This document shows, piece by piece, positions 29,109 to 56,513 of a stretch of DNA of 64,000 nt. The DNA lies in IMG/VR virus record IMGVR_UViG_3300027914_001163, positions 96,001 to 160,000 of that record; one strand, 5' to 3'. The stretch is from a virus. Lineage: Duplodnaviria > Caudoviricetes. Below the pieces are notes generated by a model that worked only from the letters and a program-made list of their open reading frames with translations, searched no databases and was not told the DNA's origin. Each line of letters begins with the position of its first letter. Position 1 is the first letter of the stretch. Made by a program: the position numbers and the translations under genes.

Positions 29109-29477
29109 TTATTCCACTTTTTTAAAATTGTTAAATTGCAATGTTACGCCCCAAGGGTCTTTACTGCCTTTATATAAATCATCAACTGCAATATGACATT
29201 GATATTTTCCTGAGATCGGAGTTATAGAACTTTGAATTGAATGTATCTTTTTATAATGGGCTTTAAATGTTATCACAAAGAATTCAAATTCTTCATCGTC
29301 GTTCTTTTCGACTTGAACATCTATTCCGCCGTTTTGTTTAATGGCTCGTTTAATATCATTTTTTGCTCTTTTAAATATTGAGTTCGGCCTGACAACAACA
29401 ACCCACTTAACCATAGCATGACTATGTTCTTTCGGAATGTCGTGTACCGCCTCAAGATAATCTTTAAACTGCTTCAT
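29109..29477 (-). CDS. putative internal head protein (CTS-like leader)
   Basis: MKQFKDYLEAVH. Confidence 0.7.
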   Translation of the reverse strand: MKQFKDYLEAVHDIPKEHSHAMVKWVVVVRPNSIFKRAKNDIKRAIKQNGGIDVQVEKNDDEEFEFFVITFKAHYKKIHSIQSSITPISGKYQCHIAVDDLYKGSKDPWGVTLQFNNFKKVE

Positions 29478-29479
29478 GT

Positions 29480-29857
29480 TTATTCACCGCCATATTTAAT
29501 CATCCACTGCCGGTCCTTATTCCTGGGAGAGAAACCACGTTCAGGATATGCAAATCGCAAGTTGTAGGTATGCTTTCCAACACGAATGTCAATCATGGTT
29601 CGTGGTTTAATGATCGAAAAGTAATTAACTTTTTCATAGTTAATTGTATTGAACTCATCAGGTAAATCAAGCAGACGTATTGCATGTTCCGGTGTTTCAA
29701 TCTTGGTGGCCATGCGCTTCATTGCAAGACCAGCACGATCATCTCCAAGGCTTTCCCAAACAGATACATAGATCGTTTTGCCGTTCCAGTATTTTATTTT
29801 TTGTTTAAGGTTTTCAATTCCCTCAAGTGCTTCAAGGTATTGTTTAAGTGTTTTCAT
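29480..29857 (-). CDS. putative internal head protein (CTS-like leader)
   Basis: MKTLKQYLEA. Confidence 0.7.
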   Translation of the reverse strand: MKTLKQYLEALEGIENLKQKIKYWNGKTIYVSVWESLGDDRAGLAMKRMATKIETPEHAIRLLDLPDEFNTINYEKVNYFSIIKPRTMIDIRVGKHTYNLRFAYPERGFSPRNKDRQWMIKYGGE

Positions 29858-30162
29858 ATTACCTGTGGCCGATAATTATTAAAAATGTTAAAATCAAATT
29901 TCGAAGCATCATACATCTTATTGGCTATCTCGTGTATGAGTTTTTGTGGTGCTTTAAAATCAACAACCTCGGATTTTGACCATTCAGAACTGGATATTTT
30001 ATCATGGGAAACGTTTGTACCGCCAGCCTTTTCAATGGCCTGAATCAATTCCTCGATTGAACATTCGCTTTCTGTAGGGTCAAACCGAAACCACCACTTT
30101 TCCAGTTTGTTTTTGGGATCAATGGTATGGGCGGCTTCGAGATAATATTGAAAAGTTTTCAT
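29854..30162 (-). CDS. putative internal head protein (CTS-like leader)
   Basis: MKTFQYYLEAAH. Confidence 0.7.
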   Translation of the reverse strand: MKTFQYYLEAAHTIDPKNKLEKWWFRFDPTESECSIEELIQAIEKAGGTNVSHDKISSSEWSKSEVVDFKAPQKLIHEIANKMYDASKFDFNIFNNYRPQVI

Positions 30163-30172
30163 TGTTTTATCC

Positions 30173-30201
30173 TTGACACAAATGTATATTATGGATAGAA
30201 T
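30173..30201 (+). promoter_or_regulatory. sigma70-type promoter
   Basis: TTGACA-N17-TAGAAT ahead of a plus-strand gene island. Confidence 0.7.
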
Positions 30202-30423
30202 GTGAAAAATTCTTAATTATTCAGGGAGATAGGTAATGGAATACAATGCCATGATTGAACATATCAGCAGCTTCAAACGTTTTGGTATTGAACAACCTTG
30301 TCGATTTTGTGAAGAGCCTACTACCTGTCGTTGTGGATGCTGTCATAGTATTGAATGTAATAAAAAGTTGTGTAAGATAGAAGGCGAAAGATTAAAAGAA
30401 TTGTTGTATTAAGGAGATAGGCG

Positions 30424-30651
30424 ATGGAGTATGATGTGGAACGAGTAATAGAAATATGGCCTAATGATAAAGGTTGGCATCTTGAAGTTGGAAAAGATCG
30501 AGACTGTTTGGGGCTGGTTGAGATACGATTGCACGATGACGAGAAAAAGGATATACCGGCCAGGATAGTTCTGGATCGTGCAGGAGCCGTGACACTGGCC
30601 AATATGATTATAGAATTCTGCAATCAGAATGACAATTTTAAAGGTGTTTGA
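30424..30651 (+). CDS. hypothetical protein
   Basis: AAGGAG RBS. Confidence 0.65.
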   Translation: MEYDVERVIEIWPNDKGWHLEVGKDRDCLGLVEIRLHDDEKKDIPARIVLDRAGAVTLANMIIEFCNQNDNFKGV

Positions 30652-32218: not shown

Positions 32219-32406
32219 AAATAGATTTCAGAGAAGGAATGAAGTGTCTCTCGTGCGGTAAACAGAATCACTTCGGAACAATTCATTTTGGAACATACGT
32301 CACGCTTGCCAATTACTGTTGTATCTGTGGCTTCGCTGCTCAACTGGCCATTCCAGAAAGAGGATACTCGATTGAATATAGGGCGGTGAAAGATGATGAA
32401 GGTTAG
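32215..32406 (+). CDS. small Zn-ribbon protein
   Basis: CLSC...CCIC. Confidence 0.55.
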   Translation: MKIDFREGMKCLSCGKQNHFGTIHFGTYVTLANYCCICGFAAQLAIPERGYSIEYRAVKDDEG

Positions 32407-32762
32407 AACTCTTTGAAGCGCAACTGATCATTGTCGTTGGGTATTCGAATATGCCATCCCATGTCGTAATGATTCTCAATAAAAATATAATCCATGTTTT
32501 TAAAATCTTTTCTGTACTCTTCTATGATAGGAGTAAGTTTCTCAGCCAGACCTCGTAACTGAGATTTTGCCATTCTAATCAGCATACCGCCATAGTTCTT
32601 CGCCAGGAATTCATCCGTGTAATCTTTAAATGAAATTCCCTCTGCCTTGAGAACTTTTTGAATGTCTTTATATATGACTATGGGCGTGTGTAATTCAAAC
32701 GTTTGAATAGTGTTATTCTTTGATTGCTGTACGACTGCTTCAAGATAGTTATTGAAACTCAT
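32403..32762 (-). CDS. putative internal head protein (CTS-like leader)
   Basis: MSFNNYLEAV. Confidence 0.7.
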   Translation of the reverse strand: MSFNNYLEAVVQQSKNNTIQTFELHTPIVIYKDIQKVLKAEGISFKDYTDEFLAKNYGGMLIRMAKSQLRGLAEKLTPIIEEYRKDFKNMDYIFIENHYDMGWHIRIPNDNDQLRFKEF

Positions 32763-33051
32763 TGTAATAATCCTTCACGGTAATCATTGGATCGTATGTG
32801 AACAACCCATCTTTGATATAATAGAGTGATGACGGAGAGGCTTTGAATACAATAATGTTTCCCTGGTACTTCCCAAGATAGTGCATCTCTCCGTGTATGT
32901 CCTTTCCGCCGTATGCTTTGATAATTTCAGCAGCTTTTGTGACAATCTTATTATCCAGGAAAAGATTTTTCATATGATACGCAAAATACTTATGCGATGG
33001 TTCAGGACGTTCTTTCTGCATGGTCTCTATGTAATAGTTTAATGTTTTCAT
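32749..33051 (-). CDS. putative internal head protein (CTS-like leader)
   Basis: MKTLNYYIE. Confidence 0.7.
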   Translation of the reverse strand: MKTLNYYIETMQKERPEPSHKYFAYHMKNLFLDNKIVTKAAEIIKAYGGKDIHGEMHYLGKYQGNIIVFKASPSSLYYIKDGLFTYDPMITVKDYYNEFQ

Positions 33052-33428
33052 TAGAAGTCGTTGTAATCTGGATTATAAAAATTTCTAAATCGTATATACG
33101 GTTTTAGTCCTGGATAATCATAATCCAGTTCGCTTTGTAAAACATTGTATATCTTTTCTCGTATAGTTTCGAGTTTGCTTTTTTGAGATTTGAATGTATA
33201 CTTTATTGAAGCATAATTCTTAACAGAACTTTGCCATTGGGTATTCTCAAGTGTTACGCCTGTTGATTCTATTGCCTTTTTAATATCACGATTTATTCTT
33301 TGGACATCTTCTTGGTTATTCTTTTTAGAAAGTCCTATGATTCCAAAGTTTACAATGCAGAACCATTTATCTATTCGTTCTGTTGGAGCCTGGTGTACGG
33401 CCTCAAGATAGTCGGTAAAGGTTTTCAT
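33051..33428 (-). CDS. putative internal head protein (CTS-like leader)
   Basis: MKTFTDYLEAVH. Confidence 0.7.
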   Translation of the reverse strand: MKTFTDYLEAVHQAPTERIDKWFCIVNFGIIGLSKKNNQEDVQRINRDIKKAIESTGVTLENTQWQSSVKNYASIKYTFKSQKSKLETIREKIYNVLQSELDYDYPGLKPYIRFRNFYNPDYNDF

Positions 33429-33832
33429 TCTTCGATTCCCTTTCTTACTGTTTCGCCTAATTCATTTTTTTGTTTTTTAAAATTCCACTCTTCTTGCGGT
33501 TTATCTCCCCAAGCCAACACTTTGTAAAGATGATTATGATCCAATCTATCTTGAAATCTAACTTCCTTTCCTTGTACTTTATCAATCCTTAAATAATCTT
33601 GAAGTTCTTTTAGGGTTTTAATAAGTTTATTTTGAGATATTTTAATATCCAACAATGATGAAGTTTTAGTCCATTGCCTTTTTCGAATAATAACTCCATT
33701 GTTTTCTATGATTTTGATTATTTCTGAATCTGGTTCTTGAGGATGATTAAATATTAAAACTTCAACAATATATGATTGTGAACGTTCAGGTGTTTGGTGT
33801 ACGGCCTCAAGATAGTCATTAAAGGTTTTCAT
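33425..33832 (-). CDS. putative internal head protein (CTS-like leader)
   Basis: MKTFNDYLEAVH (start adjusted). Confidence 0.7.
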   Translation of the reverse strand: MKTFNDYLEAVHQTPERSQSYIVEVLIFNHPQEPDSEIIKIIENNGVIIRKRQWTKTSSLLDIKISQNKLIKTLKELQDYLRIDKVQGKEVRFQDRLDHNHLYKVLAWGDKPQEEWNFKKQKNELGETVRKGIEE

Positions 33833-33871: not shown

Positions 33872-34252
33872 TTATCGTACCGTATCGATTCCCGGTGTCA
33901 CGTTCTTATGTGTATAATAATTAACGATCTGAATAAAGAACTTGCTCTTGAAAGGAATTATATTACGGTCATCATTCGCAAGTTTGGTATAGATGTCATT
34001 GATCGAAGACTCCGGTGCTTTAAATGTTACCGTCTTCATTTCTCTCTTCTGCGGATCATTCTTCGAGATTACCAACTCCAGGCGTACATCCTTTCCACCG
34101 GCTTCCTCAATGATTGCTTTGAACAATGGAAAGTCTTTGACATAATTGTTGTCATAGTTGCGTTTCCCTCCCAAGTACACACGATTCGGAATGAACCATT
34201 TCTCGGCCTTGGCGGGAGTTGTATGGACAGCCTCAAGGAAGTGTTTCAACAT
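33872..34252 (-). CDS. putative internal head protein (CTS-like leader)
   Basis: MLKHFLEAVH. Confidence 0.7.
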   Translation of the reverse strand: MLKHFLEAVHTTPAKAEKWFIPNRVYLGGKRNYDNNYVKDFPLFKAIIEEAGGKDVRLELVISKNDPQKREMKTVTFKAPESSINDIYTKLANDDRNIIPFKSKFFIQIVNYYTHKNVTPGIDTVR

Positions 34253-34253
34253 A

Positions 34254-35966
34254 TTAATCGTACCATGCTTCTATATTTACCGGACGATCAAGAAAAGAAG
34301 TAAGATAAATTCGAATATCTTCAATCTTGTCCTTCGGCAGTTTGATCTTGATTACCGGCTCCAGATAGGTTGAATGTAAAGTCGTGCTCGGAAAGGCATC
34401 GTCCGTATTGATATGATAATCAGCTTTTAAATGTTCGAGCACTTCCTCCAGGTCTTTATCACATTTTTCCTGGGCGTATTGATACCATTGCTCGTCCATC
34501 TTAATAAATGTTCTGCGCCATTTAATCTCATACATCTCCAATCGTGAAGGTGTTGCGTGGACTGCTTCGAGAAAACCTTTTTTCTTTAGTTCTCTGGTAC
34601 GGTTAAACCAAGTAAGCAATTGAGTTTGGTCAGTGTAATAATTTCTTATCACCATATCAATATCTGGAATGCCCAATAACTTTTCGATTTTCTTGCCAAC
34701 CAATATTCCAATACGCTCTGGATTATCTTGATATTGCTTTGATGGACTCGTTTTAAACAACACCACCAAATAATCTTTCATATGTTCATAGTCATAATCA
34801 ATGACCTTGACGTTGTTCTGTTCCAACGTTTTAATTATTGTTTCGGTTATCTTCTTTCTTTTTTTCGCATCAGGTTCATGCCAGTGAGTGTAATAGAGAT
34901 TCGCTTTCTCAGGCGCAGGAACAGAATGAACCGCTTCATTGTATCGTTTATCCTGTTGTTCCTTCAGTTGTTTCTTCTTATGATAATCGTAGTATTCCTG
35001 GACTGCGTGAACGTTGACGTGTATCTTAAACGAGTTAATGGTAAATGAATAGAATGCTTTCTCCACGGCGGCAGTAATATCTTTCACCTTCTGTTCAGGA
35101 GCCTTAAACGATGTTCTCCCGACTTCTTTCCATAGACCCCCAATCCTCTCGGTACTTTCTTCTGTTTGAATATCTTTAGCATCTTGGCGTTTCAATATGA
35201 ACTCCAGGCGTTCCTTGACTCGTTTATTGCTTTCTCTACCCATTGTTTCAAATTGAATCATCCACTTCTTTATAGACCCCGGTGCTGAGTGAACTGCTTC
35301 ATGTATGGGGATTTCTTTGATGAGTTTTGGATTTTTGAATATTCCATTCTCGTGATACAGAGATACAAGCCTCATCTTATATCCAAACTTCTTATACAAC
35401 AATTCTTCCAACTCTATGATCTTCTCTTTCGGCATTTTCAATATGGCATAGTCATAGGTTTTCTTTGGCTCCGAGAAAGAACGCTCATCCTCGAAACGTT
35501 TAACCTCGACGTTCTTACAATAATCGATTGTCTTCAGATAATTAACGACAGACTCCGGACCTATACCGCTGCCGTACCAATACTCCACATAGAAGTTTTC
35601 CAGTTTGTTGACAACCGGATGTACTGCTTCATTGATTGGAATATCGGACTCTTTCATCTTGTGAAATGCGCCAGGTCCATAAATGTCTTCCAAGGCCATG
35701 TGTGTATCGCCAAATCTTTTGTTGAGTTCTTCTTCGATTTCTTTTATCTTTGTTTCAGGGACTCGCAACACAACCAGGTCAAATCGGTACTGCGGTTTAT
35801 TCGGCACGGTAAATCTTCTCACCCGAACATCCTTGCAGTCTTTTATATTCTTGAGTTCTTTGGCTATATCATACAGGTCAAGCGCAACAGGATAATTGGT
35901 AACGATCACTCGTTTCCATACTTTATCTGAAGCCTGATGTACCGCTTCGAGAAAATTATTCAGCAT
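34254..35966 (-). CDS. five-unit putative polyprotein of internal-protein domains
   Basis: MLNNFLEAVH start plus internal INEAVH, IHEAVH, YNEAVH and FLEAVH. Confidence 0.72.
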   Translation of the reverse strand: MLNNFLEAVHQASDKVWKRVIVTNYPVALDLYDIAKELKNIKDCKDVRVRRFTVPNKPQYRFDLVVLRVPETKIKEIEEELNKRFGDTHMALEDIYGPGAFHKMKESDIPINEAVHPVVNKLENFYVEYWYGSGIGPESVVNYLKTIDYCKNVEVKRFEDERSFSEPKKTYDYAILKMPKEKIIELEELLYKKFGYKMRLVSLYHENGIFKNPKLIKEIPIHEAVHSAPGSIKKWMIQFETMGRESNKRVKERLEFILKRQDAKDIQTEESTERIGGLWKEVGRTSFKAPEQKVKDITAAVEKAFYSFTINSFKIHVNVHAVQEYYDYHKKKQLKEQQDKRYNEAVHSVPAPEKANLYYTHWHEPDAKKRKKITETIIKTLEQNNVKVIDYDYEHMKDYLVVLFKTSPSKQYQDNPERIGILVGKKIEKLLGIPDIDMVIRNYYTDQTQLLTWFNRTRELKKKGFLEAVHATPSRLEMYEIKWRRTFIKMDEQWYQYAQEKCDKDLEEVLEHLKADYHINTDDAFPSTTLHSTYLEPVIKIKLPKDKIEDIRIYLTSFLDRPVNIEAWYD

Positions 35967-36363
35967 CTTTCTTCTTCTCCGCATACCATGTTTTATTTCT
36001 CTCGTAAACCAGTTCATTGGTATAATAGTCACAGATGCCAAACCAAGTTCGCATCTCTTTAATTACTTCCATGTTAGCCAGGTAATCCCACTTCTTTCCC
36101 AAGTTGATCGTGTTCCTGATATTAACTTCAATTTGTTGAAAGATTGAAGGATGACCATTAAATACAATGATCACACTATTCTTGCCGCTATTCGCCTTTA
36201 CTGAACGTGCCTCTTCTTGAAGATTGGTTCCTCCGGCCTTCTTGATGGCTCTCTTCATAATGCCGACGATAGCATTCATATGAATATTATCATAACTGAA
36301 AAGATAATATCGCTTCTTGGTAGAGGGCGTGTTATGAATTGCTTCGAGATACACGTTAAGCAT
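35956..36363 (-). CDS. putative internal head protein (CTS-like leader)
   Basis: MLNVYLEAIH. Confidence 0.7.
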   Translation of the reverse strand: MLNVYLEAIHNTPSTKKRYYLFSYDNIHMNAIVGIMKRAIKKAGGTNLQEEARSVKANSGKNSVIIVFNGHPSIFQQIEVNIRNTINLGKKWDYLANMEVIKEMRTWFGICDYYTNELVYERNKTWYAEKKKDAE

Positions 36364-36712
36364 CTTTCTCTCCTGATTTTTCTTTTACTGATGAATGACG
36401 GCTGAATACCCAATCTTGCTTGTTGTATTTTCTATATGCTTGAAATATTACTCTTATTGGAAGAAATGTTAATAATGCTTCTCTAACTCTTTCTAAAGAA
36501 GGAGGATCAATTTTAAATGAATATATTGCTCCTCCTCTCATACTCCAACCTACATAACTTGCATTATCCTTACCGCAGATATTTTCAAGGACTTCAACAA
36601 TTTGATCATCTGTTATGTTTCCTATATGATCGGTATCTATCCAGAGTTCATACTGCTCGACAGGTTTGGGCGTTGTGTGTACCGCTTCGAGATAATGTTT
36701 AAATGTTTTCAT
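36356..36712 (-). CDS. putative internal head protein (CTS-like leader)
   Basis: MKTFKHYLEAVH. Confidence 0.7.
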   Translation of the reverse strand: MKTFKHYLEAVHTTPKPVEQYELWIDTDHIGNITDDQIVEVLENICGKDNASYVGWSMRGGAIYSFKIDPPSLERVREALLTFLPIRVIFQAYRKYNKQDWVFSRHSSVKEKSGEKDA

Positions 36713-37159
36713 TTATTTTCTTAATGCCTTACGATATTCTTTTTGATATTTGAATATTTGAGTCCAATTAACTTTATCTTTCATTTCAATAATAAAATTT
36801 TTAGACATTTGAACATTTTTTGATACGACATTCCAATCAACAAAGTCTTTAAAATCTCGAATGAAGTCTTCAGGTAAAGTATAATAGGTGCAAAAGGTAG
36901 TCCAATCCATATTGTAAACATCATATGATCTAAAAGGAATGATTTCGGGTATAGTATCTTCCGAGGATTTAAAAAATATAATTCTGCCATTATCATATGT
37001 TTTAAGAACTTTCCCACCGCTTTTACCAAGAAGTATCAGTGCTTTGTTTTTCCAATAGATGTCCTCGTTTTTATTGTTGCTACTTGATACCATAATAAAC
37101 TTTTTTGTTTTTTCTGGAACCTGGTGAACTGCCTCAAGATAATGTTTAAATGTTTTCAT
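36713..37159 (-). CDS. putative internal head protein with C-terminal Trp repeats
   Basis: MKTFKHYLEAVH; LPEDFIRDFKDFVDW repeats. Confidence 0.7.
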   Translation of the reverse strand: MKTFKHYLEAVHQVPEKTKKFIMVSSSNNKNEDIYWKNKALILLGKSGGKVLKTYDNGRIIFFKSSEDTIPEIIPFRSYDVYNMDWTTFCTYYTLPEDFIRDFKDFVDWNVVSKNVQMSKNFIIEMKDKVNWTQIFKYQKEYRKALRK

Positions 37160-37625
37160 TGTTCTTCCGTGCCAGGTCTTTAATCTTCTTATACGTTTCA
37201 GGCTTCATCTTGAGTTTGTACCGGATCATAACGTCTTCAGCAAACTGTCCCATATCAAAAAACAATTGTGAGACTTTTCCTTTAGGTTCAGGAATCAGTT
37301 GTTCACCGTTGTAGTAATCGAATATCAAGGTATAATCCATTTCAGGCACGGTCGTAATTGCATTAAACAAATTATACAATATCGACCTGGGACATTTGAT
37401 GATATACACAAAGAACCGTCCGTCACCAATTGAATATTCTTTTAATCTTCCAGAGCCGTAATGATCAGTAACTTCATACCTGAGAACTTCGGCCTTGTAT
37501 TCATCCAACTTATGCTTAACCTGTGGAATACCGGCAGCATCATGACACACACAGGAGATGACATACTTCTCCATTCTCTCTGGAGCCTGGTGTACGGCCT
37601 CAAGATAATAATCAAATGTTTTCAT
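37146..37625 (-). CDS. putative internal head protein (CTS-like leader)
   Basis: MKTFDYYLEAVH. Confidence 0.7.
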   Translation of the reverse strand: MKTFDYYLEAVHQAPERMEKYVISCVCHDAAGIPQVKHKLDEYKAEVLRYEVTDHYGSGRLKEYSIGDGRFFVYIIKCPRSILYNLFNAITTVPEMDYTLIFDYYNGEQLIPEPKGKVSQLFFDMGQFAEDVMIRYKLKMKPETYKKIKDLARKNNENI

Positions 37626-38104
37626 TAGTCAGTATCCAAATGATTATATTTATATTTAAACGACAGGGATACGTCTTGATAGCGCAGGATGTTATGCCAA
37701 TCTACTTTATCTTTAAACTTCAAGATAAACTTCTCAGACATCTTACTGTATTTTGAAACAGAAGACCAATCAACGAAATCTTTGAAATCTCGAATGAATG
37801 ATTCCGGCAGCTCCCAATCACTACAGAACTGTTTCCAATCCATTGTATATATATCATCGCAATCACCAAAAAGATAATCTTCAGGGGCGAGATTGGAAGG
37901 ACATTTAAAAAATATAATCGTTCCATTATCTGCATCTGCGCTTTTATATATCTTTAGTATTTCACTATTGGGAATTGATTTGATTTCTTGGAGAACTGAA
38001 TCTCTTGTCTCTTCTTGCAAATCAAACGCTATGGTAATATATTTTTTAAATTTATCTGCTTGTACCTTGTGGACTGCTTCGAGATAATAATTAAACGTTC
38101 GCAT
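37625..38104 (-). CDS. putative internal head protein with C-terminal Trp repeats
   Basis: MRTFNYYLEAVH (start adjusted); paralogue of 36713-37159. Confidence 0.7.
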   Translation of the reverse strand: MRTFNYYLEAVHKVQADKFKKYITIAFDLQEETRDSVLQEIKSIPNSEILKIYKSADADNGTIIFFKCPSNLAPEDYLFGDCDDIYTMDWKQFCSDWELPESFIRDFKDFVDWSSVSKYSKMSEKFILKFKDKVDWHNILRYQDVSLSFKYKYNHLDTD

Positions 38105-47903: not shown

Positions 47904-47989
47904 AAATTTTCCTATTCTTTTTGGTGAAGTCGTTATAATATACAATTATATTAGATCGTTTTACAAAAAAGGACTTAAAAAAAGGCCAA

Positions 47990-48409
47990 ATGAAAGTATT
48001 GGAATTTTATCTCGAAGCATCACGGCCAACTCGATTGAATGAACTTCGCAAATGGAAAATGGAAATAAGTTACAGCGGTTATTGGCATAGAAGTTGGAGA
48101 AAGAGACTCGAAATTGACAATCCAATTGAAGAAGTTCCTGAACTCGATGAGAGAGTTCATAAATCGTTAATGGATAAAATAACCGCTCTATTAAAAGAAT
48201 ATAATATTGAAAATATTCAAGAAATTCCAAGAGGTTCTTTAGCAGACAGCAACGAAAGAAAAGTTAGAATGGACTACGATATTATTTTCAGGACAACTTT
48301 CAAAAACGCCATTGAGATACGAAGCAAAGTTCAACACCTTCTTGACGATGAAGAATTTTCAATACAGGGTTGGAGTTTAGATGGCGTACACAATTATTAC
48401 GAAAATTAA
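47990..48409 (+). CDS. putative internal head protein (CTS-like leader)
   Basis: MKVLEFYLEA. Confidence 0.7.
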   Translation: MKVLEFYLEASRPTRLNELRKWKMEISYSGYWHRSWRKRLEIDNPIEEVPELDERVHKSLMDKITALLKEYNIENIQEIPRGSLADSNERKVRMDYDIIFRTTFKNAIEIRSKVQHLLDDEEFSIQGWSLDGVHNYYEN

Positions 48410-48426: not shown

Positions 48427-48831
48427 ATGTCATCAAGATTTAGGGAATATCTCGAAAAAACATACTCAGAAGAAGGCGAAGAACCAGAAGAGGGCGGAGC
48501 GAATCTTCCTGCTGTCCGTGGCGGTATGGGACGTGAAATGATGGGGAGAGCAACCGGCTTTCCTCATGAACTGCAAGTTAAACTGATGAGTGAAATGAAA
48601 CATCTCCAGAGCCAACCGCATAAGTATCTCAGGATGATGAACGACCTCATGCCAATCATGATGAAACTTCAAGGTGGTGAATTTCTCAAGCCAGCCGAAG
48701 CCGAAGAATTCCTGAATAAATATAAAGAGTTCGACAAGGACGTAAACAATCCTCGGTACTTCAAACTGCTGAAAGAATTCTTGACTACTGGAAACTGGAA
48801 CTTTGCCAAATTTAAAGGTGATGTTCGGTAA
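48427..48831 (+). CDS. putative internal head protein (CTS-like leader)
   Basis: MSSRFREYLE, AGGAG RBS. Confidence 0.7.
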   Translation: MSSRFREYLEKTYSEEGEEPEEGGANLPAVRGGMGREMMGRATGFPHELQVKLMSEMKHLQSQPHKYLRMMNDLMPIMMKLQGGEFLKPAEAEEFLNKYKEFDKDVNNPRYFKLLKEFLTTGNWNFAKFKGDVR

Positions 48832-49193
48832 TGAATCTTTCTCGTTATCTCGAAGCAAAACACGCCGCAGAAAAACTTGAACGATATACCAGATACGAAC
48901 TGGACATGACCAATTATTCTGCCAATTATCATCTTAATTGGAAAGAATTTATTGATCGTGATATTCAAGAAGTAATGAAATTTTTAAAAGAGAACGGCGC
49001 ACTGGATGTGAAGTTTGCCATGAAAGGAAAAATGGCTTCATCGGGAGCTGCAAACTTTATTATCGATTTTAAATCTGCGCCCTCTGTTGTGGCAAAGTTT
49101 CTTGATGTCATACGAGATAACATGCCTGGTTGGAGTGTTAACATTTATGATAAATATCAAAATGTAAACATAGTGGAGTTGCTTTCATTATGA
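48831..49193 (+). CDS. putative internal head protein (CTS-like leader)
   Basis: MNLSRYLEAKH. Confidence 0.7.
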   Translation: MNLSRYLEAKHAAEKLERYTRYELDMTNYSANYHLNWKEFIDRDIQEVMKFLKENGALDVKFAMKGKMASSGAANFIIDFKSAPSVVAKFLDVIRDNMPGWSVNIYDKYQNVNIVELLSL

Positions 49194-49534
49194 GTTTAAA
49201 ATATTATCTTGAGGCAGTACATAAAACTCCTGGTAGAATACGCAGATTCCTTTTGGGAATGGATAACTTAGCAAAAGGAGATCACATAAATGAAAAATTT
49301 CAAACAAAGGCTATAGAAAAAACAATTCAACTATTAAATAGTCTTAAAGTGTTGGATGTACGGCTGACTGACCGAAGCAACCTGAAAGATATTTTTTATC
49401 CTTATTTTGGAATATCATTTCGAGCATCGATGGACATGCTTCATAAGATAGATAAAACATTAAGATTACAAATGAATGATTGGATCACATCATACACAGA
49501 CGAAGAAAATAAGCGAACTGTTTACCCTGATTAA
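49190..49534 (+). CDS. putative internal head protein (CTS-like leader)
   Basis: MSLKYYLEAVH. Confidence 0.7.
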   Translation: MSLKYYLEAVHKTPGRIRRFLLGMDNLAKGDHINEKFQTKAIEKTIQLLNSLKVLDVRLTDRSNLKDIFYPYFGISFRASMDMLHKIDKTLRLQMNDWITSYTDEENKRTVYPD

Positions 49535-49547: not shown

Positions 49548-51161
49548 ATGTTTAACATATATCTTGAGTATTTGTACAACGAAGCCAAAGAAGCACTCAT
49601 CGCAAAAATGCCTTGGGATGATGAACAAAAAAAAGCTGTTCAAGAACTTGTCAATAAATATCCTCAGAAAGCAAGCAAGATAGATTGGAATAACAAAGCA
49701 CTCACCGCCGATCAAGCCTTAACTGTACTCAGAGAAGAAAGTAAAAAGGATGTTAAAAAGCAAATTCGCCAGGGCATACCAGGACTCATAGAGGGAACTG
49801 ACTACATTGAATTCCATGACATACCGAAGCCAAATCACGATGTCAGGGTTTTTTCTCCGCTTAACTACAAGGCTTCATGTGCTATTGGCCGTGGGGCGAA
49901 GTGGTGTACGGCGATGGAGAACAATGCCACTCATTGGAGAAGTTATACCAAGAGGGGTGTGACATTTTTTTACATTCACGACACTTTCGCAAAAAACATG
50001 CAACGTATCGCTGTTTCAGTTGAGCGAAACGGAAATATAAGTATTTTTGATAAACAAGATATTCAATCAATTAAAGCATCTGAATTAAAAGACCTTTTCG
50101 GACTTACACCGCAATGGTTTATAAAACATGTAGCCATAGTTCAAGAAGGAATTAACAAAAACAAAGAACAAAGAAAAGTATCTTCAAAAGGAAAAGAAGT
50201 TGTTTTCGAAGATGATCCGTGGAAAGTGATAGTTTGTGGAGATTTTGAAGCATTCGAAACTCTAACAGATTATTATGATGAAAGCGAATTTGAAGAAAGA
50301 ACAGAAGATGGACCAATTTATCTTTTAAAAGAAAACGACGAGGAAAAGGCTTCTTATCTACTTCATAAGCCATCGTTGGATTTTATCGACCTCACCACTC
50401 CACGAAACCAAAAAGTATATCTCGGTGGTTTGTTTTATGACAACTCCGATCTTAATGGAGTATACGATTTCTTAATGGATGAATGGGATGTTGACACCCA
50501 TCCAATCGACATAGAATTTTCTCTTACAGAAGTAATAAGTGATTTTTATAACGGTAGAGGACACAATGAAGTTCCATCGGCAGTGTTGAAAAGTATTCTC
50601 ATCAATAAAAAGAATTACAAAAAAATGTTCAGTGAATGTTCAGGGGAAATTAAAGAATTCATCGAAGAAAAATATCGCATGGAAGGAATCGACTCCATGA
50701 GCGATGATGATTTGTGGGATTTCGTTAATGGTAAAATAAACCTTTCCGGTGTTGTTAAAACTCTCAAGAAATCAATGGACACGATGTTTGACGAAGCAAA
50801 TGAAAATTCTTTTCCTGGTATATCATACGATGTCGAAAAAAACAGAGCCTTTGTTTATCTTGACGAAGAATACATTTTAAATTACATGCTCGATGATATT
50901 ATCGAGAGAGGGAGACCAGATACATACAACGATCTCCCAAGTCAAATGTTTGAAGGTTATTATTTGTCAGATATTAAAGTTGACGATGTTATCAAAGAAT
51001 ATCTTGAAGCGGGTTATGAAACTCCAGAAGAGTACGCTCATAAACTTCGAGAGAAGGAATACAAGAAAGCCGGTCAAATGAAATTGCCGTTTGGTAGAAG
51101 TAAAAAGAAGAAAGTTATAGCCGAAGATGTAAATATATTTGAAAGATATTTACGAGGTTAA
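49548..51161 (+). CDS. large putative internal protein with WCT-motif domain
   Basis: MFNIYLE..YNEA; ASC.IG..AKWCTA. Confidence 0.75.
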   Translation: MFNIYLEYLYNEAKEALIAKMPWDDEQKKAVQELVNKYPQKASKIDWNNKALTADQALTVLREESKKDVKKQIRQGIPGLIEGTDYIEFHDIPKPNHDVRVFSPLNYKASCAIGRGAKWCTAMENNATHWRSYTKRGVTFFYIHDTFAKNMQRIAVSVERNGNISIFDKQDIQSIKASELKDLFGLTPQWFIKHVAIVQEGINKNKEQRKVSSKGKEVVFEDDPWKVIVCGDFEAFETLTDYYDESEFEERTEDGPIYLLKENDEEKASYLLHKPSLDFIDLTTPRNQKVYLGGLFYDNSDLNGVYDFLMDEWDVDTHPIDIEFSLTEVISDFYNGRGHNEVPSAVLKSILINKKNYKKMFSECSGEIKEFIEEKYRMEGIDSMSDDDLWDFVNGKINLSGVVKTLKKSMDTMFDEANENSFPGISYDVEKNRAFVYLDEEYILNYMLDDIIERGRPDTYNDLPSQMFEGYYLSDIKVDDVIKEYLEAGYETPEEYAHKLREKEYKKAGQMKLPFGRSKKKKVIAEDVNIFERYLRG

Positions 51162-51162: not shown

Positions 51163-51567
51163 GTGTCCTACTTTCAATACTACATGGAGATGGCTTCCCA
51201 AGGATCAACCTTTCGTGGTTTTCGAACTGAAGATTTTGCAGGAGAGGAATACCGTGACCTCCTGGAAGTTGTTGAACATGAGACTGAGACGTTGGGTAAT
51301 TCCGATATTCCTGACTATCTGAAGAAGCACAAAATAAAAGATTACAAAAAATATATCAACGACATATACAAACAAGGTTATACCGAATGTTTGTGGTTGG
51401 TAAGAAGTCTCAAGCAACTTGAAAAAACATATGTCAGAGAGATGATGAGACACGAAGGGGATTTTGATTATGATGAATATATTATCAAAGACCCTATCAT
51501 TCTTTCAGACGATGAAGAGTTTGGACAACTGGTAGCATATAAACCAAAAAATCTTAAAGGAGTATAA
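51163..51567 (+). CDS. putative internal head protein (CTS-like leader)
   Basis: GTG start gives MSYFQYYME; GAGGT RBS. Confidence 0.65.
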   Translation: MSYFQYYMEMASQGSTFRGFRTEDFAGEEYRDLLEVVEHETETLGNSDIPDYLKKHKIKDYKKYINDIYKQGYTECLWLVRSLKQLEKTYVREMMRHEGDFDYDEYIIKDPIILSDDEEFGQLVAYKPKNLKGV

Positions 51568-51568: not shown

Positions 51569-53407
51569 ATGAATATATTCACCACCTACATAGAAGCCAA
51601 AGAAGCACTCATTGCGAAGATGCCTTGGAGCGACGATCAGAAAAAAGAAATCCAAGAACTGGTAAACAAATATCCGCAGAAAGCATCGCTCATTGATTGG
51701 AACAAAAAAGACTTGTCAGCGGAACAGGCTTTCTCGGTGTTAAAAGAAGAAAGTAAGAAAGCAGTCAAGAAACAAATCCGCCAGGGCGTACCAGGATTAA
51801 AACAGAACGATGACTATATAGAAATACCGGAAAGTAAATTCCCTGCCGAAGCAAAAGGTAGAGACATCCGTGTATTTATTCCGATGAATCACAAAGCATC
51901 ATGTGCTCTTGGGCGTGAAGCGAAGTGGTGTACGGCGATGGAAAAGGAGCCTGGTCACTGGAATAGTTATACGAAAAAAGGAAAAGTTTTCTTTTACATA
52001 CACAATGATACAGCAGACAATCCAGATATGAAAAAGATTGCAGTTGTATATGATGGCAGTAACAATATTCAAAGTTTTACATCCGCTTGGAATATTAAAG
52101 ATTTGCAGATACGACAAATTACAGTCCAGGAACAAACTGGCTTGACTGACGAATTCTTTAAAAAATATACACAGAATGTCCACGAGACAATAATAAAAAA
52201 AGCGAATGAACGATACGCCAAAGTTTTAAAAAACATACGACACATTTGGAATGACGAATCAGTTACAATATTCTCTCCAGAAAATCGTGAACAATTTGAA
52301 GTCCTCATGGAAGACGGAGAATGGATTTTTGATTTTGATATTCCGCCATTGGTAATTCTTACTAAATCCAATGGTCAGAAATACGGTCTCGATGTTGACA
52401 GGGGTGTTTGGTATGAAATGGAAGGAAATTCTCCTGATTCCACTGTTGACGAAGTTCTTAAAAATAATTCTCCGGCGCAAGTATTTCTGTTTCAGTACAT
52501 ACTTCATAAGCATGGTAATGATTTAAAAAAGAAACTCGAATATGTTTCTCCAAAAGATAAACAGAAAAATATTAAAAGTAATTTCACTGTAAAAGTTGAT
52601 TCGCATTATGATTCTGTAACCATTCATACCTATATTGATTCATTTATGGATTATTTTAATCTTGGTGAAAAACATTTCAACGAATGGATTAAAGGAATGA
52701 TTAATGGAGATGAATTTTTTGATCCAGGCGGAAGCTATCATATGAGTGCTTCAGATATTGAAAGCAGCATCAACAAACAAAACATGGATACTATCAGAAA
52801 GATAATGTCTGATCCTGATCATAACGATGCTCTCAGCACAGATATTGATGATCTGGATGATGGAGAACTTCTTGATTTAATTATGGATAATGATGTTGAT
52901 GATATTATTGATGCATTGAGAACGGCACAATATACCGGCGAGAACACTGGTGCTTTAGATGAGTTTTATAAAAGTGTATATTCTGCCATTGAAGATACTC
53001 CATTCCGCCATCAAAAAAGTGGAGGTTTTACAGCGACATTTAAACCATCAGATGGTATCATGCCTATACTCATGATGCTGTGGAATGGATTTGAAGGATT
53101 GTTTATAACAGAAGAAGACAACGGAGTGTCGGAGCCATTATATAAAATGGATGTCAGTGAACCGCAATACGGATGGTCAGGATTTAGCGACGAAGCATTT
53201 AATGAACGTTTAGCAGAAGAACTCCCTGAACCCAAGACCAAGGCCCAAAAGATGAAAGAAGAGGGTCAAAAAGACCTATTTGATGACCAGGGCAAGCCCA
53301 CCAAAGAGGCCAAGAGACATCCAAAACCCAAGAAGAAAAAAAGGCTTGCCACAAACGAAGATTATACATATAATAACATATTTGATAAATATAGAGGAAT
53401 TTTATAA
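51569..53407 (+). CDS. large putative internal protein with WCT-motif domain
   Basis: MNIFTTYIEA; N-terminal region paralogous to 49548. Confidence 0.75.
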   Translation: MNIFTTYIEAKEALIAKMPWSDDQKKEIQELVNKYPQKASLIDWNKKDLSAEQAFSVLKEESKKAVKKQIRQGVPGLKQNDDYIEIPESKFPAEAKGRDIRVFIPMNHKASCALGREAKWCTAMEKEPGHWNSYTKKGKVFFYIHNDTADNPDMKKIAVVYDGSNNIQSFTSAWNIKDLQIRQITVQEQTGLTDEFFKKYTQNVHETIIKKANERYAKVLKNIRHIWNDESVTIFSPENREQFEVLMEDGEWIFDFDIPPLVILTKSNGQKYGLDVDRGVWYEMEGNSPDSTVDEVLKNNSPAQVFLFQYILHKHGNDLKKKLEYVSPKDKQKNIKSNFTVKVDSHYDSVTIHTYIDSFMDYFNLGEKHFNEWIKGMINGDEFFDPGGSYHMSASDIESSINKQNMDTIRKIMSDPDHNDALSTDIDDLDDGELLDLIMDNDVDDIIDALRTAQYTGENTGALDEFYKSVYSAIEDTPFRHQKSGGFTATFKPSDGIMPILMMLWNGFEGLFITEEDNGVSEPLYKMDVSEPQYGWSGFSDEAFNERLAEELPEPKTKAQKMKEEGQKDLFDDQGKPTKEAKRHPKPKKKKRLATNEDYTYNNIFDKYRGIL

Positions 53408-54972
53408 TGAGAAACATATTTAGTTACTACCTTGAAGCCGATGGTCATGCAATCTATAGCCATTACTCTCAGAAGATGCCATATGACGTATTCAAGGAGA
53501 TAGTCAGCGCAGACCCAACATCCAAGAAGGCTGAGACCGGCGACGATATTAAGTACGTTGGCAACTATTCCAAATGGCTTCTGCAACTCTATATTAAAGG
53601 TTCTCTCAAAATTGAAGACCTTTATAAAGCCACTGAGTATCTTACCATCTTCAATAAAGCAAAAAACAAAATTGAAGACGTTAAACTTCGTGACATCAAT
53701 AAATACAAATCACTTCAAGATGTTTACGCTCTTATTCGTGAACGTGGCCTTGAGGAAGTCAAAGGTACTCGTGAAGTTAAACGGGAAAAGCAAGAAGTCA
53801 TCGAAAAGGGTGCTGGCGATGCTCAACTGTTTTATGAAGATAGCGATTGGAAAGTAGTCATTCCGAAATCCGAAGAAGCCTCGTGCTATTGGGGCAAACA
53901 CACTCAATGGTGTACTGCCGGTAGAGAACGCAATTACTTCAATCATTACAACGAACAAGGTCCGTTGTATATCCTGATCAACAAACATAATCCAGATGAT
54001 AAATATCAATTCCATTTTGAGAGCGGACAGTACATGGATAAACATGACAGCCCGATCAATCTCATTGAGTTCTTTGAAGGAAAAGAGAACCTGGCCAATG
54101 CTTTCCTTAAACTTCTCGTGCAGAAAGTTAAGAAAGCAAAATTGGAAGGAATCACAACAAAAGTAGACGACAACAGTATTACCATTACCACATCACTGGA
54201 AACGTTGGCTGAGAATTTCCAGACAAATCGTGACCGTGACGCTGTATCATCGAAATGGATTAAGGATTTCCTGGACGGAGATAACAGGATTGAATACATT
54301 GATTATCATCCTGATATTGAAGATTTCAAAACTGAAATTGGGCCAGAATCATACAACAAGATTCGTGCCATTGCTTCTACCAGTAAAAAAGCGGCAGGAG
54401 TTGATCTTAATGACGAGGACGCTCTTCTCTCATTTATTGAAGAGAACATGCCTGATCTGAAACGTGCTATTCAGAACGCTCTTGTTCGTGCCGTTGAAGA
54501 TGCCGCCAATGATGAAGTTTACAAGGACATTGTTAAATCTGTAACCGGTGCTGGTTGGAAACAAAATAAAGATGGATCGTTTACAGCGGTTATGACCACA
54601 AAACAATACGGCATTGTACCTTATATTCTCATGGCAGAGGGAAGCAGCGGATTTGATTCTCTCTTCAGGGAAAGCGAAAATTATGGTACTGAGGCCATTT
54701 TTGATCTGAGGCTGACAGAACCTCGTAATGGTTGGAGCGGAGACTCAGAACCTTTCGTGGACGAAGCCTTATCGGATGTTTTGTCTGAATTCAAACCAAA
54801 GGTAACTGCTCCCAAAAAAGCAAAGGCAAGTGCGCCGGAGACAGAGGAAAAGCCGAAGCCACAAAAGAAATCGACAAAAAAGACAAAGGAAGAGCCTGAA
54901 GAACTTGGTTCAGTGGTTCACGCTGAAGATGCAACCGGAAGCCTTTTGGAGAAATATCTAAAAAGGAAATAG
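53407..54972 (+). CDS. large putative internal protein with WCT-motif domain
   Basis: MRNIFSYYLEA; ADPTS, EDLYKA, WCTA, KYQFHF. Confidence 0.75.
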   Translation: MRNIFSYYLEADGHAIYSHYSQKMPYDVFKEIVSADPTSKKAETGDDIKYVGNYSKWLLQLYIKGSLKIEDLYKATEYLTIFNKAKNKIEDVKLRDINKYKSLQDVYALIRERGLEEVKGTREVKREKQEVIEKGAGDAQLFYEDSDWKVVIPKSEEASCYWGKHTQWCTAGRERNYFNHYNEQGPLYILINKHNPDDKYQFHFESGQYMDKHDSPINLIEFFEGKENLANAFLKLLVQKVKKAKLEGITTKVDDNSITITTSLETLAENFQTNRDRDAVSSKWIKDFLDGDNRIEYIDYHPDIEDFKTEIGPESYNKIRAIASTSKKAAGVDLNDEDALLSFIEENMPDLKRAIQNALVRAVEDAANDEVYKDIVKSVTGAGWKQNKDGSFTAVMTTKQYGIVPYILMAEGSSGFDSLFRESENYGTEAIFDLRLTEPRNGWSGDSEPFVDEALSDVLSEFKPKVTAPKKAKASAPETEEKPKPQKKSTKKTKEEPEELGSVVHAEDATGSLLEKYLKRK

Positions 54973-54973
54973 T

Positions 54974-55207
54974 ATGAATGTATTCCAAGGGCATTACTTT
55001 GAAGCAAGTGATCATAGTAATGCCATTTTAAAAAGAAATAAAAAAATATTCTGGATCGGCGCAGTCAATTTACTCGATGGATACATTGAAGAAGTTTATA
55101 CATATGAGACAGCCAAGAACGCAGATTTTCATCATAGTTTTTACTTCAGCCAAAACGCTATAAGAAAAATTCGTGAAGAAGAATGGGGAATTTTTCTGGA
55201 TCGATAA
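54974..55207 (+). CDS. putative internal head protein
   Basis: MNVFQGHYFEA. Confidence 0.55.
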   Translation: MNVFQGHYFEASDHSNAILKRNKKIFWIGAVNLLDGYIEEVYTYETAKNADFHHSFYFSQNAIRKIREEEWGIFLDR

Positions 55208-55279
55208 TAAAAAGGTTGTCACATGGGATTTGGAAGTGACACCTGAAATAATCTCAAAAGTAAAAGAACAAATCAGCGT

Positions 55280-55999
55280 ATGATCGGATTACAATATTAT
55301 TTTGAAGCCAAGCATGATGTGCCAGAGCGTTTAGAAACCTGGAGCATACGTTCACACAATGCATATCTTTTTCATCATCAAGATCAATGGATGAAGATTC
55401 TCATGTCTTTAAGCAACGACTTTACAAATGCCGGAGCCATTGATGTACACTATGAAAAATATCAACCTGGCTCTGCAATACCAATACTTGTTTTCAAATC
55501 TCCGGTATCAATGCTCAGAAAACTTCAAACCATATTATTTAATCTTCTCAAAGAAACAGGATACAAACTTTATACTGATATATCATTCATCAATAAATAT
55601 TCTGGTAAACCATATTATGACTATACAAATGGTTTGCATGAAGAATTTTTAGAATCAGTTCATCAAGCATCATCTGAAAAAATAAAAAGATATTTTATAT
55701 ATGTTGTTGGCGGTTCAGAAAAGGATGCCGATAGTTATTCACATAAATCCTGGGAAAAGAGAATCATGTTTATGAAAGGAGTTATATTGAAGCGTGGAGG
55801 TCGTGCTGTATTCTCGGAAATGGCGCACCATCAAGTTGATAATAAATCAAAAGAACAATATCATAGAGGTTTCAATACTATAATATCTTTTAAAGCCCCA
55901 TATTCCGCTCTTGACACTATCAGAAAAAATATAATTCCAAAAGAAGATTATGACCATCCCATATGGGATTATTATAGTAAGGAGTTAGTTAGAAGATGA
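55280..55999 (+). CDS. two-unit putative internal protein
   Basis: MIGLQYYFEAKH plus internal EFLESVH. Confidence 0.7.
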   Translation: MIGLQYYFEAKHDVPERLETWSIRSHNAYLFHHQDQWMKILMSLSNDFTNAGAIDVHYEKYQPGSAIPILVFKSPVSMLRKLQTILFNLLKETGYKLYTDISFINKYSGKPYYDYTNGLHEEFLESVHQASSEKIKRYFIYVVGGSEKDADSYSHKSWEKRIMFMKGVILKRGGRAVFSEMAHHQVDNKSKEQYHRGFNTIISFKAPYSALDTIRKNIIPKEDYDHPIWDYYSKELVRR

Positions 56000-56271
56000 G
56001 TCTATTTAATTATTATCTTGAAAGCGTAAATTTTGACAAACTTAAAAAGAACAAAATTCCCTTGACCGATGAAGAAAGGTCAGAAGTCATGAAAGCAGAT
56101 GCCATATGGCATCATGGACCAAACGGCGAAAAAACACCAGCAGTTTGGAAATCAAAAAAAAGTGACGGTAGTATTGTATATATAACCAATACACACCGAG
56201 CCTGTGCCATTAAAGACACATTAAAAGGCGCAATCAATGCCTATCACAAAAGCATCAAAGGCACAGCATGA
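55996..56271 (+). CDS. putative internal head protein (CTS-like leader)
   Basis: MSLFNYYLESV. Confidence 0.7.
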   Translation: MSLFNYYLESVNFDKLKKNKIPLTDEERSEVMKADAIWHHGPNGEKTPAVWKSKKSDGSIVYITNTHRACAIKDTLKGAINAYHKSIKGTA

Positions 56272-56513
56272 GCCATTTTAAACAATATCTTAAAAAAGCC
56301 TATCTCGAAAGAGAATTGTTAGGTAATGTTATTCAAACCGGATTCAGACCAATTCAAAATCCTTTATCAATGGAAGATGTGTACAGCCGAGTTCGCATGG
56401 ATGCAAAAGAGTTCGTAAGAGCTGCTTTGGATCATAATTATTCAAAGGAAGAGATCATGAACTTTCTTAAAGAACATGGCATGACACAGGAAGCGATTGA
56501 TAAAATTGTTTAA
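56268..56513 (+). CDS. putative internal head protein
   Basis: MSHFKQYL..AYLE. Confidence 0.6.
   Translation: MSHFKQYLKKAYLERELLGNVIQTGFRPIQNPLSMEDVYSRVRMDAKEFVRAALDHNYSKEEIMNFLKEHGMTQEAIDKIV

Follow-up and report, generated by a model that had tools for sequence, protein, structure and literature searches.

The internal proteins of bacteriophage T4 reportedly carry a capsid targeting sequence and are processed by gp21, a finding said to go back to Mullaney and Black in 1996. Here we analyze a stretch of 64,000 nucleotides (hereafter, the window), corresponding to bases 96001-160000 of the 191,433-bp single virus contig IMGVR_UViG_3300027914_001163 (38% G+C; linear and ~83% complete according to IMG/VR), in which 28 genes begin with variants of one short leader peptide. 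We consider it probable that this leader represents the T4-type capsid-targeting and prohead-protease propeptide system of the lineage, greatly expanded and partly organized in polyproteins. The gene content suggests that an unusually large and fast-evolving set of proteins is probably loaded into the capsid for delivery with the DNA.

In T4 the capsid targeting sequence reads MKTYQEFIAE (PMC8442874). The internal proteins (IPs) and Alt gain access to the scaffolding core by N-terminal propeptides of ~10 and 7 residues, respectively, gp21 cuts after Leu/Ile-X-Glu, and the proteins are ejected with the DNA (PMC9026906, PMC3012670). T4 Ip1-3 have the leader alone in common, each being an injected inhibitor of a different GmrSD restriction enzyme; T4 has three internal-protein genes, and at least 10 kinds are reported across T-even phages (PMC12373910). 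Alt is a packaged and injected ADP-ribosyltransferase (ART) that gp21 trims at both ends (PMC9026906).

The locus described here is similar to IPI, IPII, and IPIII in having an N-terminal tag of about ten residues on otherwise unrelated small proteins, with hydrophobic-x-Glu followed by Ala, in the company of a gp21-family protease, a scaffold core, and a gp23 capsid protein, and in the location of these genes in variable loci where bodies turn over between relatives. It differs by the number of genes (~40 versus three in T4), by an aromatic residue at P3 (two positions ahead of the Glu), by polyproteins of two to five modules with cleavage-site joints, and by the fact that most of the cargo is one expanded module family. 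In phages phiKZ, 201phi2-1, and SPN3US, a diverged gp21 homologue likewise cleaves dozens of head proteins behind Glu, in some cases yielding several pieces (PMC9026906, PMC5694885, PMC7411985), and large protein cargo of this group enters the host cell, as the genes suggest for the present phage. However, the propeptides of the phiKZ group are long, cut at Ser/Ala-X-Glu, and lack a uniform N-terminal tag, whereas one short tag is reused here; an inner-body or ejection system of the phiKZ type was rejected because the leader is short and uniform, its P3 is aromatic or aliphatic, and the head genes are of the T4 type. In phage P1, the N-terminal signal of DarB is sufficient to load the anti-restriction protein or a reporter into the capsid, but the Dar proteins have neither a consensus nor a linked cleavage motif, and the head assembly is unrelated (PMC9024508). 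Thus the kind of system is already known, and what is new is its scale (~40 tagged genes), the polyprotein format, the expanded ferredoxin-like family, and, in a T4-type phage this distant, a dialect with aromatic P3. Polyprotein cargo with predicted cuts at a tag-type site and mass diversification of one small fold are not described in the T4 literature that we searched.

The Leader Peptide

A preliminary description of the window, made from its letters alone, had listed 28 leader genes, and all of them were found in place: 15 at 29109-38879 (-), one at 45421-45789 (-), and 12 at 47990-56513 (+). These genes begin with variants of M-K-T-F-x-x-Y-L-E↓A-V-H (the arrow marks the predicted cut) and are tightly packed, abutting or overlapping. 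As a count for the window this number stands, but for the genome it is an underestimate. A looser N-terminal pattern retrieves 44 open reading frames (ORFs), about 40 of them credible, from the whole 191-kb genome and two from the reversed genome; besides the genes of the window, approximately 14 lie at the contig ends (184.4-187 kb and 0.4-5.5 kb), and a further one, at 167.3 kb, is a fourth paralogue of the large proteins described below. With ~294 ORFs in the whole genome, roughly one gene in seven bears the leader.

The strict motif [YF]LEA[VAI]H has 15 six-frame matches against a mean of 0.02 in 100 shuffles, and EAVH has 16 against 0.23. At least eight unrelated body types, as judged by BLAST and hidden Markov model (HMM) searches, stand under the leader, in agreement with the earlier claim of a shared leader and divergent bodies. 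In the alignment of the 28 proteins, Glu is the sole column conserved at 90% or more, as expected for the P1 residue of a gp21-type protease. P3 is Tyr, Phe, or His at the N-termini and Ile, Ile, Tyr, and Phe at internal joints; P1' is mostly Ala, with Ser, Thr, Met, Lys, and Asp also occurring. Hydrophobic-X-Glu followed by a small residue matches the site type of prohead proteases, the aromatic P3 being a variation on the T4 rule, and the genes for a protease, a scaffold-like protein, and a gp23 homologue adjoin. Over its whole length M-K-T-F-x-x-Y-L-E resembles the T4 targeting sequence, a likeness of 9-10 residues that are too few for statistics. In both structure models obtained (33872-34252 and 38091-38879), the leader lies outside the fold, and in the former it is unstructured.

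Synonymous codons vary freely at the conserved leader residues: GCA, GCC, GCG, and GCT are all used for Ala, GAA and GAG for Glu, CTT and CTC for Leu, CAC and CAT for His, and Val codons vary as well. The longest exact DNA run common to two leaders has a median of 7 nucleotides (nt), with 20-27 nt in a few pairs. Selection thus acts on the peptide.

Shine-Dalgarno-like sites (GGAG- or AGGA-like) precede most leader genes. Six starts were reassigned to put the leader at the N-terminus (33425-33832, 34254-35966, 37625-38104, 45421-45789, 48427-48831, and 51163-51567); the GTG start at 51163 lies five bases past GAGG and one base past the preceding stop. The weaker members are 56268 (YLK, then AYLE↓R), 48427 (YLE↓K), 51163 (YME↓M), 54974 (YFE↓A), 29480, and 32749.

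One element of the preliminary description has to be corrected. A-V-H, considered there as a part of the leader, belongs to the module family: A-V-H-x-x-P is a part of the module and is absent from the large proteins, the ART-fold domain, and the singletons. A-V-H is also absent from the leaders of the closest relative, a 205-kb IMG/VR contig (G001), and is replaced by A-L-S or A-L-T in foreign module homologues, and it was rejected as a part of the general tag. A Cu/Ni-binding (X-X-His) role of a mature A-V-H N-terminus was given low weight, as the motif is not family-wide.

Scanning IMG/VR with F-x-x-YLEAVH-x-x-P yielded one match, internal to an unrelated protein and probably due to chance, and MKTF-x-x-YLEA yielded six, four of them at ORF starts on single genes. 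On an unrelated 35.7-kb viral contig (L013:165-1181 (-)), the stretch F-F-H-Y-F-E-A-V-H-N-T-P-D-D occurs within a protein of 338 amino acids (aa), beside a 409-aa protein; it may reflect chance or a protease site.

Modules and Polyproteins

The body pattern of about 100 aa noted previously was reproduced by an HMM built from 22 modules, which detects 26 domains in 21 ORFs of this genome. The copies are hyper-divergent, with an identity of at most ~30%. In the structure model of the representative 33872-34252 (pLDDT 81.6, pTM 0.75), a strand at 16-22, a helix at 34-50, strands at 54-62 and 71-80, a helix at 81-93, and a short last strand at ~110 form a beta-alpha-beta-beta-alpha-beta topology, in line with the small ferredoxin-like fold suggested before. 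The best Foldseek matches (E 4e-3) are ribosomal S6, PII/SbtB, and the ACT domain of ThrA; the best VIA-align score, Z 7.2 (rmsd 2.6, 71 aligned), is shared by many unrelated ferredoxin-like entries. A PDB profile search gave nothing under E 0.04, and a search of viral models gave nothing better than E 1e-2. The modelled fold therefore matches only generically ferredoxin-like structures, no single superfamily being favored.

The module family is almost absent from public protein space. Among 1.84 billion representative proteins, the module profile finds 32, of which ~20 come from the same phage and ~12 are foreign. The latter are singletons on short contigs; a leader of this kind opens nearly all of them, and two comprise two modules linked by the same internal joint. 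A module profile search of G001 gave no match, and the expansion is specific to this lineage.

The leader junction recurs inside three ORFs, one five-module and two two-module polyproteins. In 34254-35966 the joints are INE↓AVH, IHE↓AVH, YNE↓AVH, and FLE↓AVH; in 55280-55999, FLE↓SVH separates two modules; and in 38091-38879 (262 aa), an unrelated N-terminal domain is followed by FLE↓AVH and a module. All joints retain Glu and the hydrophobic residue two positions ahead of it, and the M-K-T-F half of the leader is missing. The retention of the cut site only supports a division of the tag into a docking part and a cleavage part, and the joints as read from the translations would fit one tag per polyprotein and one cut per joint.

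Large Acidic Proteins and an ADP-Ribosyltransferase Fold

Three large paralogues of 537, 612, and 521 aa share a conserved N-terminal region that begins right behind the Glu. Every homologue found elsewhere opens with ...[YF]-L-E↓A-K-E-A, whereas the C-terminal parts vary and include ankyrin repeats and a region similar to leucine-rich repeats (LRR). By sequence, the large cargo appears to consist genome-wide of four acidic proteins with exchangeable C-terminal parts; the only GenBank phage match is a weak one in a 440-kb Salicola phage. In all three proteins of the window, x-A/N-E↓D near the C-terminus precedes a terminal leader-like tail (N-I-F-E-R-Y-L, N-I-F-D-K-Y, and L-L-E-K-Y-L, respectively), a candidate C-terminal propeptide or second docking motif. 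In one foreign homologue (P0058), the tail motif is internal.

The N-terminal domain of 38091-38879 (residues ~8-150) was modelled with pLDDT 85 and pTM 0.81. Foldseek ranked Tpt1/KptA first (2e-4), followed by DarT and toxin ARTs; the top 50 entries of a wide VIA-align search were all ARTs, with Z 9.2 for KptA (rmsd 2.6, 85 aligned), 8.9 for TreX, and 8.6 for EcPltA; and the ESM Atlas pointed to the same fold. According to the model, this domain has an ART fold, with a putative NAD-dependent activity. As to the ART catalytic motifs (H-Y-E, R-S-E, or the Tpt1 tetrad), His19 (in Y-H-V-T), Thr23, Tyr50, Asp63, Asp98, and Asp101 are invariant among 24 homologues, and no invariant Glu was identified among them. 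The domain has no sequence match in Pfam, NCBIfam, or PDB and none among GenBank phage proteins; it has 23 homologues in the protein collection, and IMG/VR contains 32 loci with it.

The short leader followed by an ART fold in 38091-38879 and the possible cleavable C-terminal tail of the large cargo recall T4 Alt. In contrast to Alt, the domain is of ~140 aa, is closest in structure to Tpt1/KptA, DarT, and small toxin ARTs, and is fused to an AVH module. Membership in the Alt family was rejected for lack of detectable sequence similarity, and the domain is regarded as an analogue of Alt only. At six loci of other viral contigs (L022, L026, L027, L034, L038, and L047) the ART-fold domain is N-terminal in proteins of ~1,100-1,600 aa, the size class of virion-delivered multi-domain proteins.

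Head Genes

Judging from its head genes, the phage is a T4-type but distant relative. The genome has no nucleotide match among GenBank phages, and the leader arrays have none at the DNA level. The portal gene of the gp20 family, 45891..47945 (-) (Pfam Portal_T4 1e-50), has leader-gene arrays on both flanks, and the plus-strand array leads directly into the head-core genes. The gp21-like protease announced in the preliminary description, 59428..60105 (+), is indeed a member of the gp21/S77 family (Pfam Peptidase_S77 7e-11; T4 gp21 structure 5JBL 1.2e-10); its S-S-R-G motif aligns with the catalytic-serine stretch of T4 gp21 (5JBL). As the sole S77 gene in the genome, it is presumed to encode the enzyme that cuts behind the leader Glu.

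An acidic protein in the gp22 position, 60181..61140 (+), has no Pfam match and is called scaffold-like from its position and composition. It contains three to four tandem repeats of the type A-E-A-A-F-E-K-[YF]-E-E-[DH], with the core A-A-F-E-K-[YF]-E-E; these fit F-x-x-Y-x-E, as the leader does, and recur in diverged form in G001. Judging by these repeats, the leader may mimic a self-interaction or cleavage motif of the scaffold. The major capsid protein of the gp23 family, 61174..62775 (+) (Pfam Gp23 3e-55), is only ~28% identical to T-even gp23 and has an L-I-A-E↓D site at about residue 59, which is kept in G001 and has its T4 equivalent at 65.

Some further features of these proteins may be mentioned. 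The N-terminus of the capsid protein, M-F-Y-N-E↓A-Y-E (M-I-Y-N-E-A-Y-E in G001), contains the same Y-N-E↓A as one polyprotein joint, and E-N-Y-L-E↓H, further in than the N-terminal site, is not conserved in G001. The C-terminal part of the portal protein (window 46100-46460) includes a low-complexity stretch of ~90 residues rich in Pro, Ala, and Gly, unusual among gp20-type portals.

Related Phages and Leader Dialects

The closest relative, G001, is identical to the present phage at 66% of positions in the capsid protein, 69% in the protease, and 65% in the portal. It has ~19 genes starting with M-S-[KR]-F-x-x-Y-L-E-[AS...], and BLAST of the 28 bodies against it gave zero matches. TerL and portal genes are adjacent in G001 and 17 kb apart here, with 15 leader genes in the gap. 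The contig-end cluster of leader genes is syntenic with a cluster at 87-101 kb of G001 and, from this synteny, looks like the older locus.

Stand-alone small homologues of the ART-fold domain have varied short leaders, all ending in hydrophobic-x-Glu: M-F-K-C-Y-L-E↓A, which is the type of this phage, MKFKLLE, MKAKEFITE↓E, MRAHELLNE↓T, and MRTFSQFITE↓A. The last one is nearly identical to the T4 targeting sequence, so that one and the same cargo links MLKYYLE↓A of this phage with MRTFSQFITE↓A of another. Neighboring genes share a local dialect: five tandem genes have M-K-F-K-x-x-E at one locus (L021), three have M-[KR]-[ST]-F-x-Q-F-x-T-E at another (L023), and dialect-sharing gene pairs occur at L035/L036 and L048. 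Such a pattern would be expected if the tag co-evolves with the head machinery of a lineage while cargo domains move between lineages. The comparison supports the leader as a portable, lineage-specific tag that is kept while bodies turn over in variable loci.

Three observations concern G001 itself. In its gene 92678-93115 (L006:12678-13115), the leader occurs twice in tandem (M-S-K-F-K-E-Y-L-E-S and M-S-K-F-K-E-Y-L-E-A) ahead of a Cys-rich, zinc-ribbon-like body. Gene 97733-99256 (L006:17733-19256) encodes a leader-tagged protein of 507 aa with a P-loop AAA/STAND-like ATPase region, for which the Pfam matches are at or under curated cut-offs (E ~2e-5 to 2e-4). At 59583-60550 (L004), three leader genes stand between the protease and scaffold genes, a position that is empty in the window.

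Proposed Mechanism and Alternatives

From the leader, its statistics, peptide-level selection, internal junctions, T4-type head genes, folds, and the comparative pattern, we infer core docking, cleavage, retention, injection, and an effector function as follows. During prohead assembly, the hydrophobic face (F-x-x-Y-L) of the 8-10-residue leader would dock the new protein on the scaffolding core, and the capsid shell would close round the core. The gp21-type serine protease 59428 would then cut after Glu (hydrophobic-x-Glu↓Ala/Ser), removing the tag and, within the capsid, splitting polyproteins into single modules of ~100 aa; once mature, the proteins would be retained alongside the DNA in the head and pass into the host upon infection. 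The tag would thus consist of two parts, the N-terminal F-x-x-Y-L face for docking and hydrophobic-x-Glu↓Ala for the protease, and the capsid would serve as a compartment in which processing of a single loaded precursor frees several modules. As a whole, the cargo forms a diversifying library of 26 ferredoxin-like modules, four large acidic proteins, the ART-fold domain, and several singletons. Every part of the capsid-targeting interpretation in the preliminary description that is testable in sequence held, and packaging, cleavage, and a role as injected anti-defense or host-takeover effectors are predicted.

Several results weigh against this model. P3 is mostly Tyr or Phe, as opposed to Leu or Ile in the T4 rule. 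None of the 28 bodies matches a known anti-defense or defense family in library searches: Pfam, NCBIfam, and PADLOC gave nothing credible, and PHROGs gave only families of unknown function. The mature products are partly basic (17 of 34 have pI >8), the large ones being acidic. The T4 late promoter TATAAATA is not enriched, leaving late co-expression without support; scans for sigma-70 promoters and terminators gave nothing informative. Searches for S77 and Gp23 in the other phages with leader dialects were mostly negative, the records being 4-55% complete. Finally, searches for dCMP hydroxymethylase/thymidylate synthase and for the TGT/DpdA family found no genes for hydroxymethylcytosine or deazaguanine DNA modification. 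The analogy with T4 Ips acting against type IV restriction is therefore unsupported here, and the idea that the cargo specifically counters such restriction of modified DNA was dropped.

The serious rival accepts that the leader targets proteins to the prohead core and is cut, but denies that these proteins are injected effectors: they would be constituents of the core or internal body that fill space, condense DNA, or assist assembly as cofactors, and would be degraded, expelled, or retained in the head. Indeed, T4 core proteins are mostly cut and then leave the head (PMC9026906), half of the modules are basic like DNA-associated internal proteins, the bodies do not resemble known anti-defense proteins, and the scaffold-like protein itself bears leader-like F-x-x-Y-x-E repeats. 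However, 26 hyper-divergent copies (at most ~30% identity) and full body turnover at 66% capsid identity look like arms-race diversification, the enzyme fold of one cargo is typical of T4 Alt and of toxins that modify the host, and homologues of the large cargo end in ankyrin or LRR-like target-binding parts. On balance we regard packaging without an effector role as unlikely, while taking it seriously.

The other explanations deny the leader its role in the head. That the shared N-terminus is a mere conserved start of one tandem-duplicated paralogous family, with no signal function, might be suggested by the fact that tandem paralogues of a single module make up most of the set and that A-V-H-x-x-P is module-specific. 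This is largely refuted, and very improbable: the same leader stands on unrelated bodies (the large acidic family, the ART domain, 48427, 51163, 54974, and 55996), its motif recurs at internal module joints and is kept in G001 on unrelated proteins, homologous cargo elsewhere has other dialects, and the leader falls outside the modelled folds. Equally hard to believe is a recognition tag for another enzyme such as a radical-SAM maturase, for a host protease, or for a secretion system. Maturases can use shared N-terminal tags, and the genome has one radical-SAM gene (genome 55125-55550 (-), Pfam 7e-9), but this gene is ~50 kb or more from every leader array; the leader lacks the Cys-, Ser-, or Thr-rich core typical of maturase substrates, is too little hydrophobic for Sec, and has neither a twin-arginine motif nor a lipobox, whereas its invariant residue is precisely the Glu expected at P1 for the protease whose gene lies beside the arrays. 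Even less credence is due to conservation at the DNA level, in which the leader region would serve to shuffle cassettes by recombination or to initiate translation, the peptide being incidental. The few leader pairs with exact runs of 20-27 nt speak for it, as does the polymorphism of ip loci among T-even phages described by Repoila et al. in 1994 (cited in PMC12373910), but the short median run and the synonymous variation at Ala, Glu, Leu, Val, and His codons described above speak against it; short homologies may still aid shuffling as a side effect.

Within the capsid-loading model, a more specific scenario can be offered tentatively, with doubts outweighing confidence: one ferredoxin-like scaffold, in 26 copies mostly <30% identical, could have been diversified into capsid-delivered binders or inhibitors of variable host defense proteins, with the prohead as a processing compartment in which one tag loads a polyprotein and the head protease frees up to five effectors in fixed proportion. 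If so, the phage would possess an antibody-like repertoire of injected anti-defense modules, a tagged cargo set larger than any other known from T4-type phages, and a short tag that could be transferred to foreign proteins for loading. The expenditure of roughly one gene in seven on tagged proteins points to a much larger "first-strike" proteome, delivered ahead of phage gene expression, with ~45 candidate injected modules for screening against defense systems. For engineered protein delivery, the leader would provide a second natural tag for capsid loading that brings its own means of removal, and a lineage-own leader dialect common to neighboring genes could serve as a search rule for injected cargo in uncultured T4-like phages.

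Gene Content of the Arrays

In the minus-strand array, a leader followed by one AVH module recognized by the HMM is found in 29109..29477 (MKQFKDYLE↓AVH, 122 aa; independent E-value (iE) 2e-30), 29854..30162 (MKTFQYYLE↓AAH, 102 aa), 32403..32762 (MSFNNYLE↓AVV, 119 aa), 32749..33051 (MKTLNYYIE↓TMQ, 100 aa), 33051..33428 (MKTFTDYLE↓AVH, 125 aa), 33425..33832 (MKTFNDYLE↓AVH, 135 aa, start shifted to the second Met), the modelled representative 33872..34252 (MLKHFLE↓AVH, 126 aa), 35956..36363 (MLNVYLE↓AIH, 135 aa), and 36356..36712 (MKTFKHYLE↓AVH, 118 aa). The five-module polyprotein 34254..35966 (570 aa) has one N-terminal leader and five HMM domains with iE 1e-16 to 1e-24. Other HMM-positive products depart from this plan: 36713..37159 (MKTFKHYLE↓AVH, 148 aa) has a partial module and a C-terminal repeat region and matches phrog_3532, of unknown function; 37146..37625 (MKTFDYYLE↓AVH, 159 aa) has a C-terminally extended module; and 37625..38104 (MRTFNYYLE↓AVH, 159 aa) is a paralogue of 36713 (52% identity). 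The two-part polyprotein 38091..38879, identified by models and HMM, consists of the leader MLKYYLE↓A, the ART-fold domain, the joint IFLE↓AVH, and an AVH module. The product of 29480..29857 (MKTLKQYLE↓ALEG, 125 aa) has a body without a clear module. The single minus-strand gene 45421..45789 (MTGNFQKYLE↓AVH, 122 aa, module by HMM) lies just downstream of the portal gene.

The plus-strand array starts with 47990..48409 (MKVLEFYLE↓ASR, 139 aa), divergent from the portal gene; this gene, 48831..49193 (MNLSRYLE↓AKH, 120 aa), and 49190..49534 (MSLKYYLE↓AVH, 114 aa) contain modules recognized by the HMM. The two-module polyprotein 55280..55999 (MIGLQYYFE↓AKH, joint EFLE↓SVH, 239 aa) has two HMM domains. 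The large acidic paralogues are 49548..51161 (537 aa, MFNIYLEYLYNE↓AKEAL, with the leader-like C-terminal tail), 51569..53407 (612 aa, MNIFTTYIE↓AKEAL), and 53407..54972 (521 aa, MRNIFSYYLE↓ADG). Unrelated bodies follow the leader in 48427..48831 (MSSRFREYLE↓KTY, 134 aa), 51163..51567 (MSYFQYYME↓MAS with the GTG start, acidic, 134 aa), 54974..55207 (MNVFQGHYFE↓ASD, small, 77 aa), and 55996..56271 (MSLFNYYLE↓SVN, small and basic, 91 aa), and the array ends with the weak member 56268..56513 (MSHFKQYLKKAYLE↓RE, 81 aa).

Two neighboring features should be added. An island of ~6 small plus-strand genes (window 30236-32406 (+)) splits the minus-strand leader array, and one of them, 31346-32218, encodes a PAPS-reductase/PP-loop domain (Pfam 4e-26). 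Between the leader array and the portal region, the product of 39499-40110 (-) has, by eye, a GNAT acetyltransferase-like motif of the Q-x-x-G-x-G/A type.

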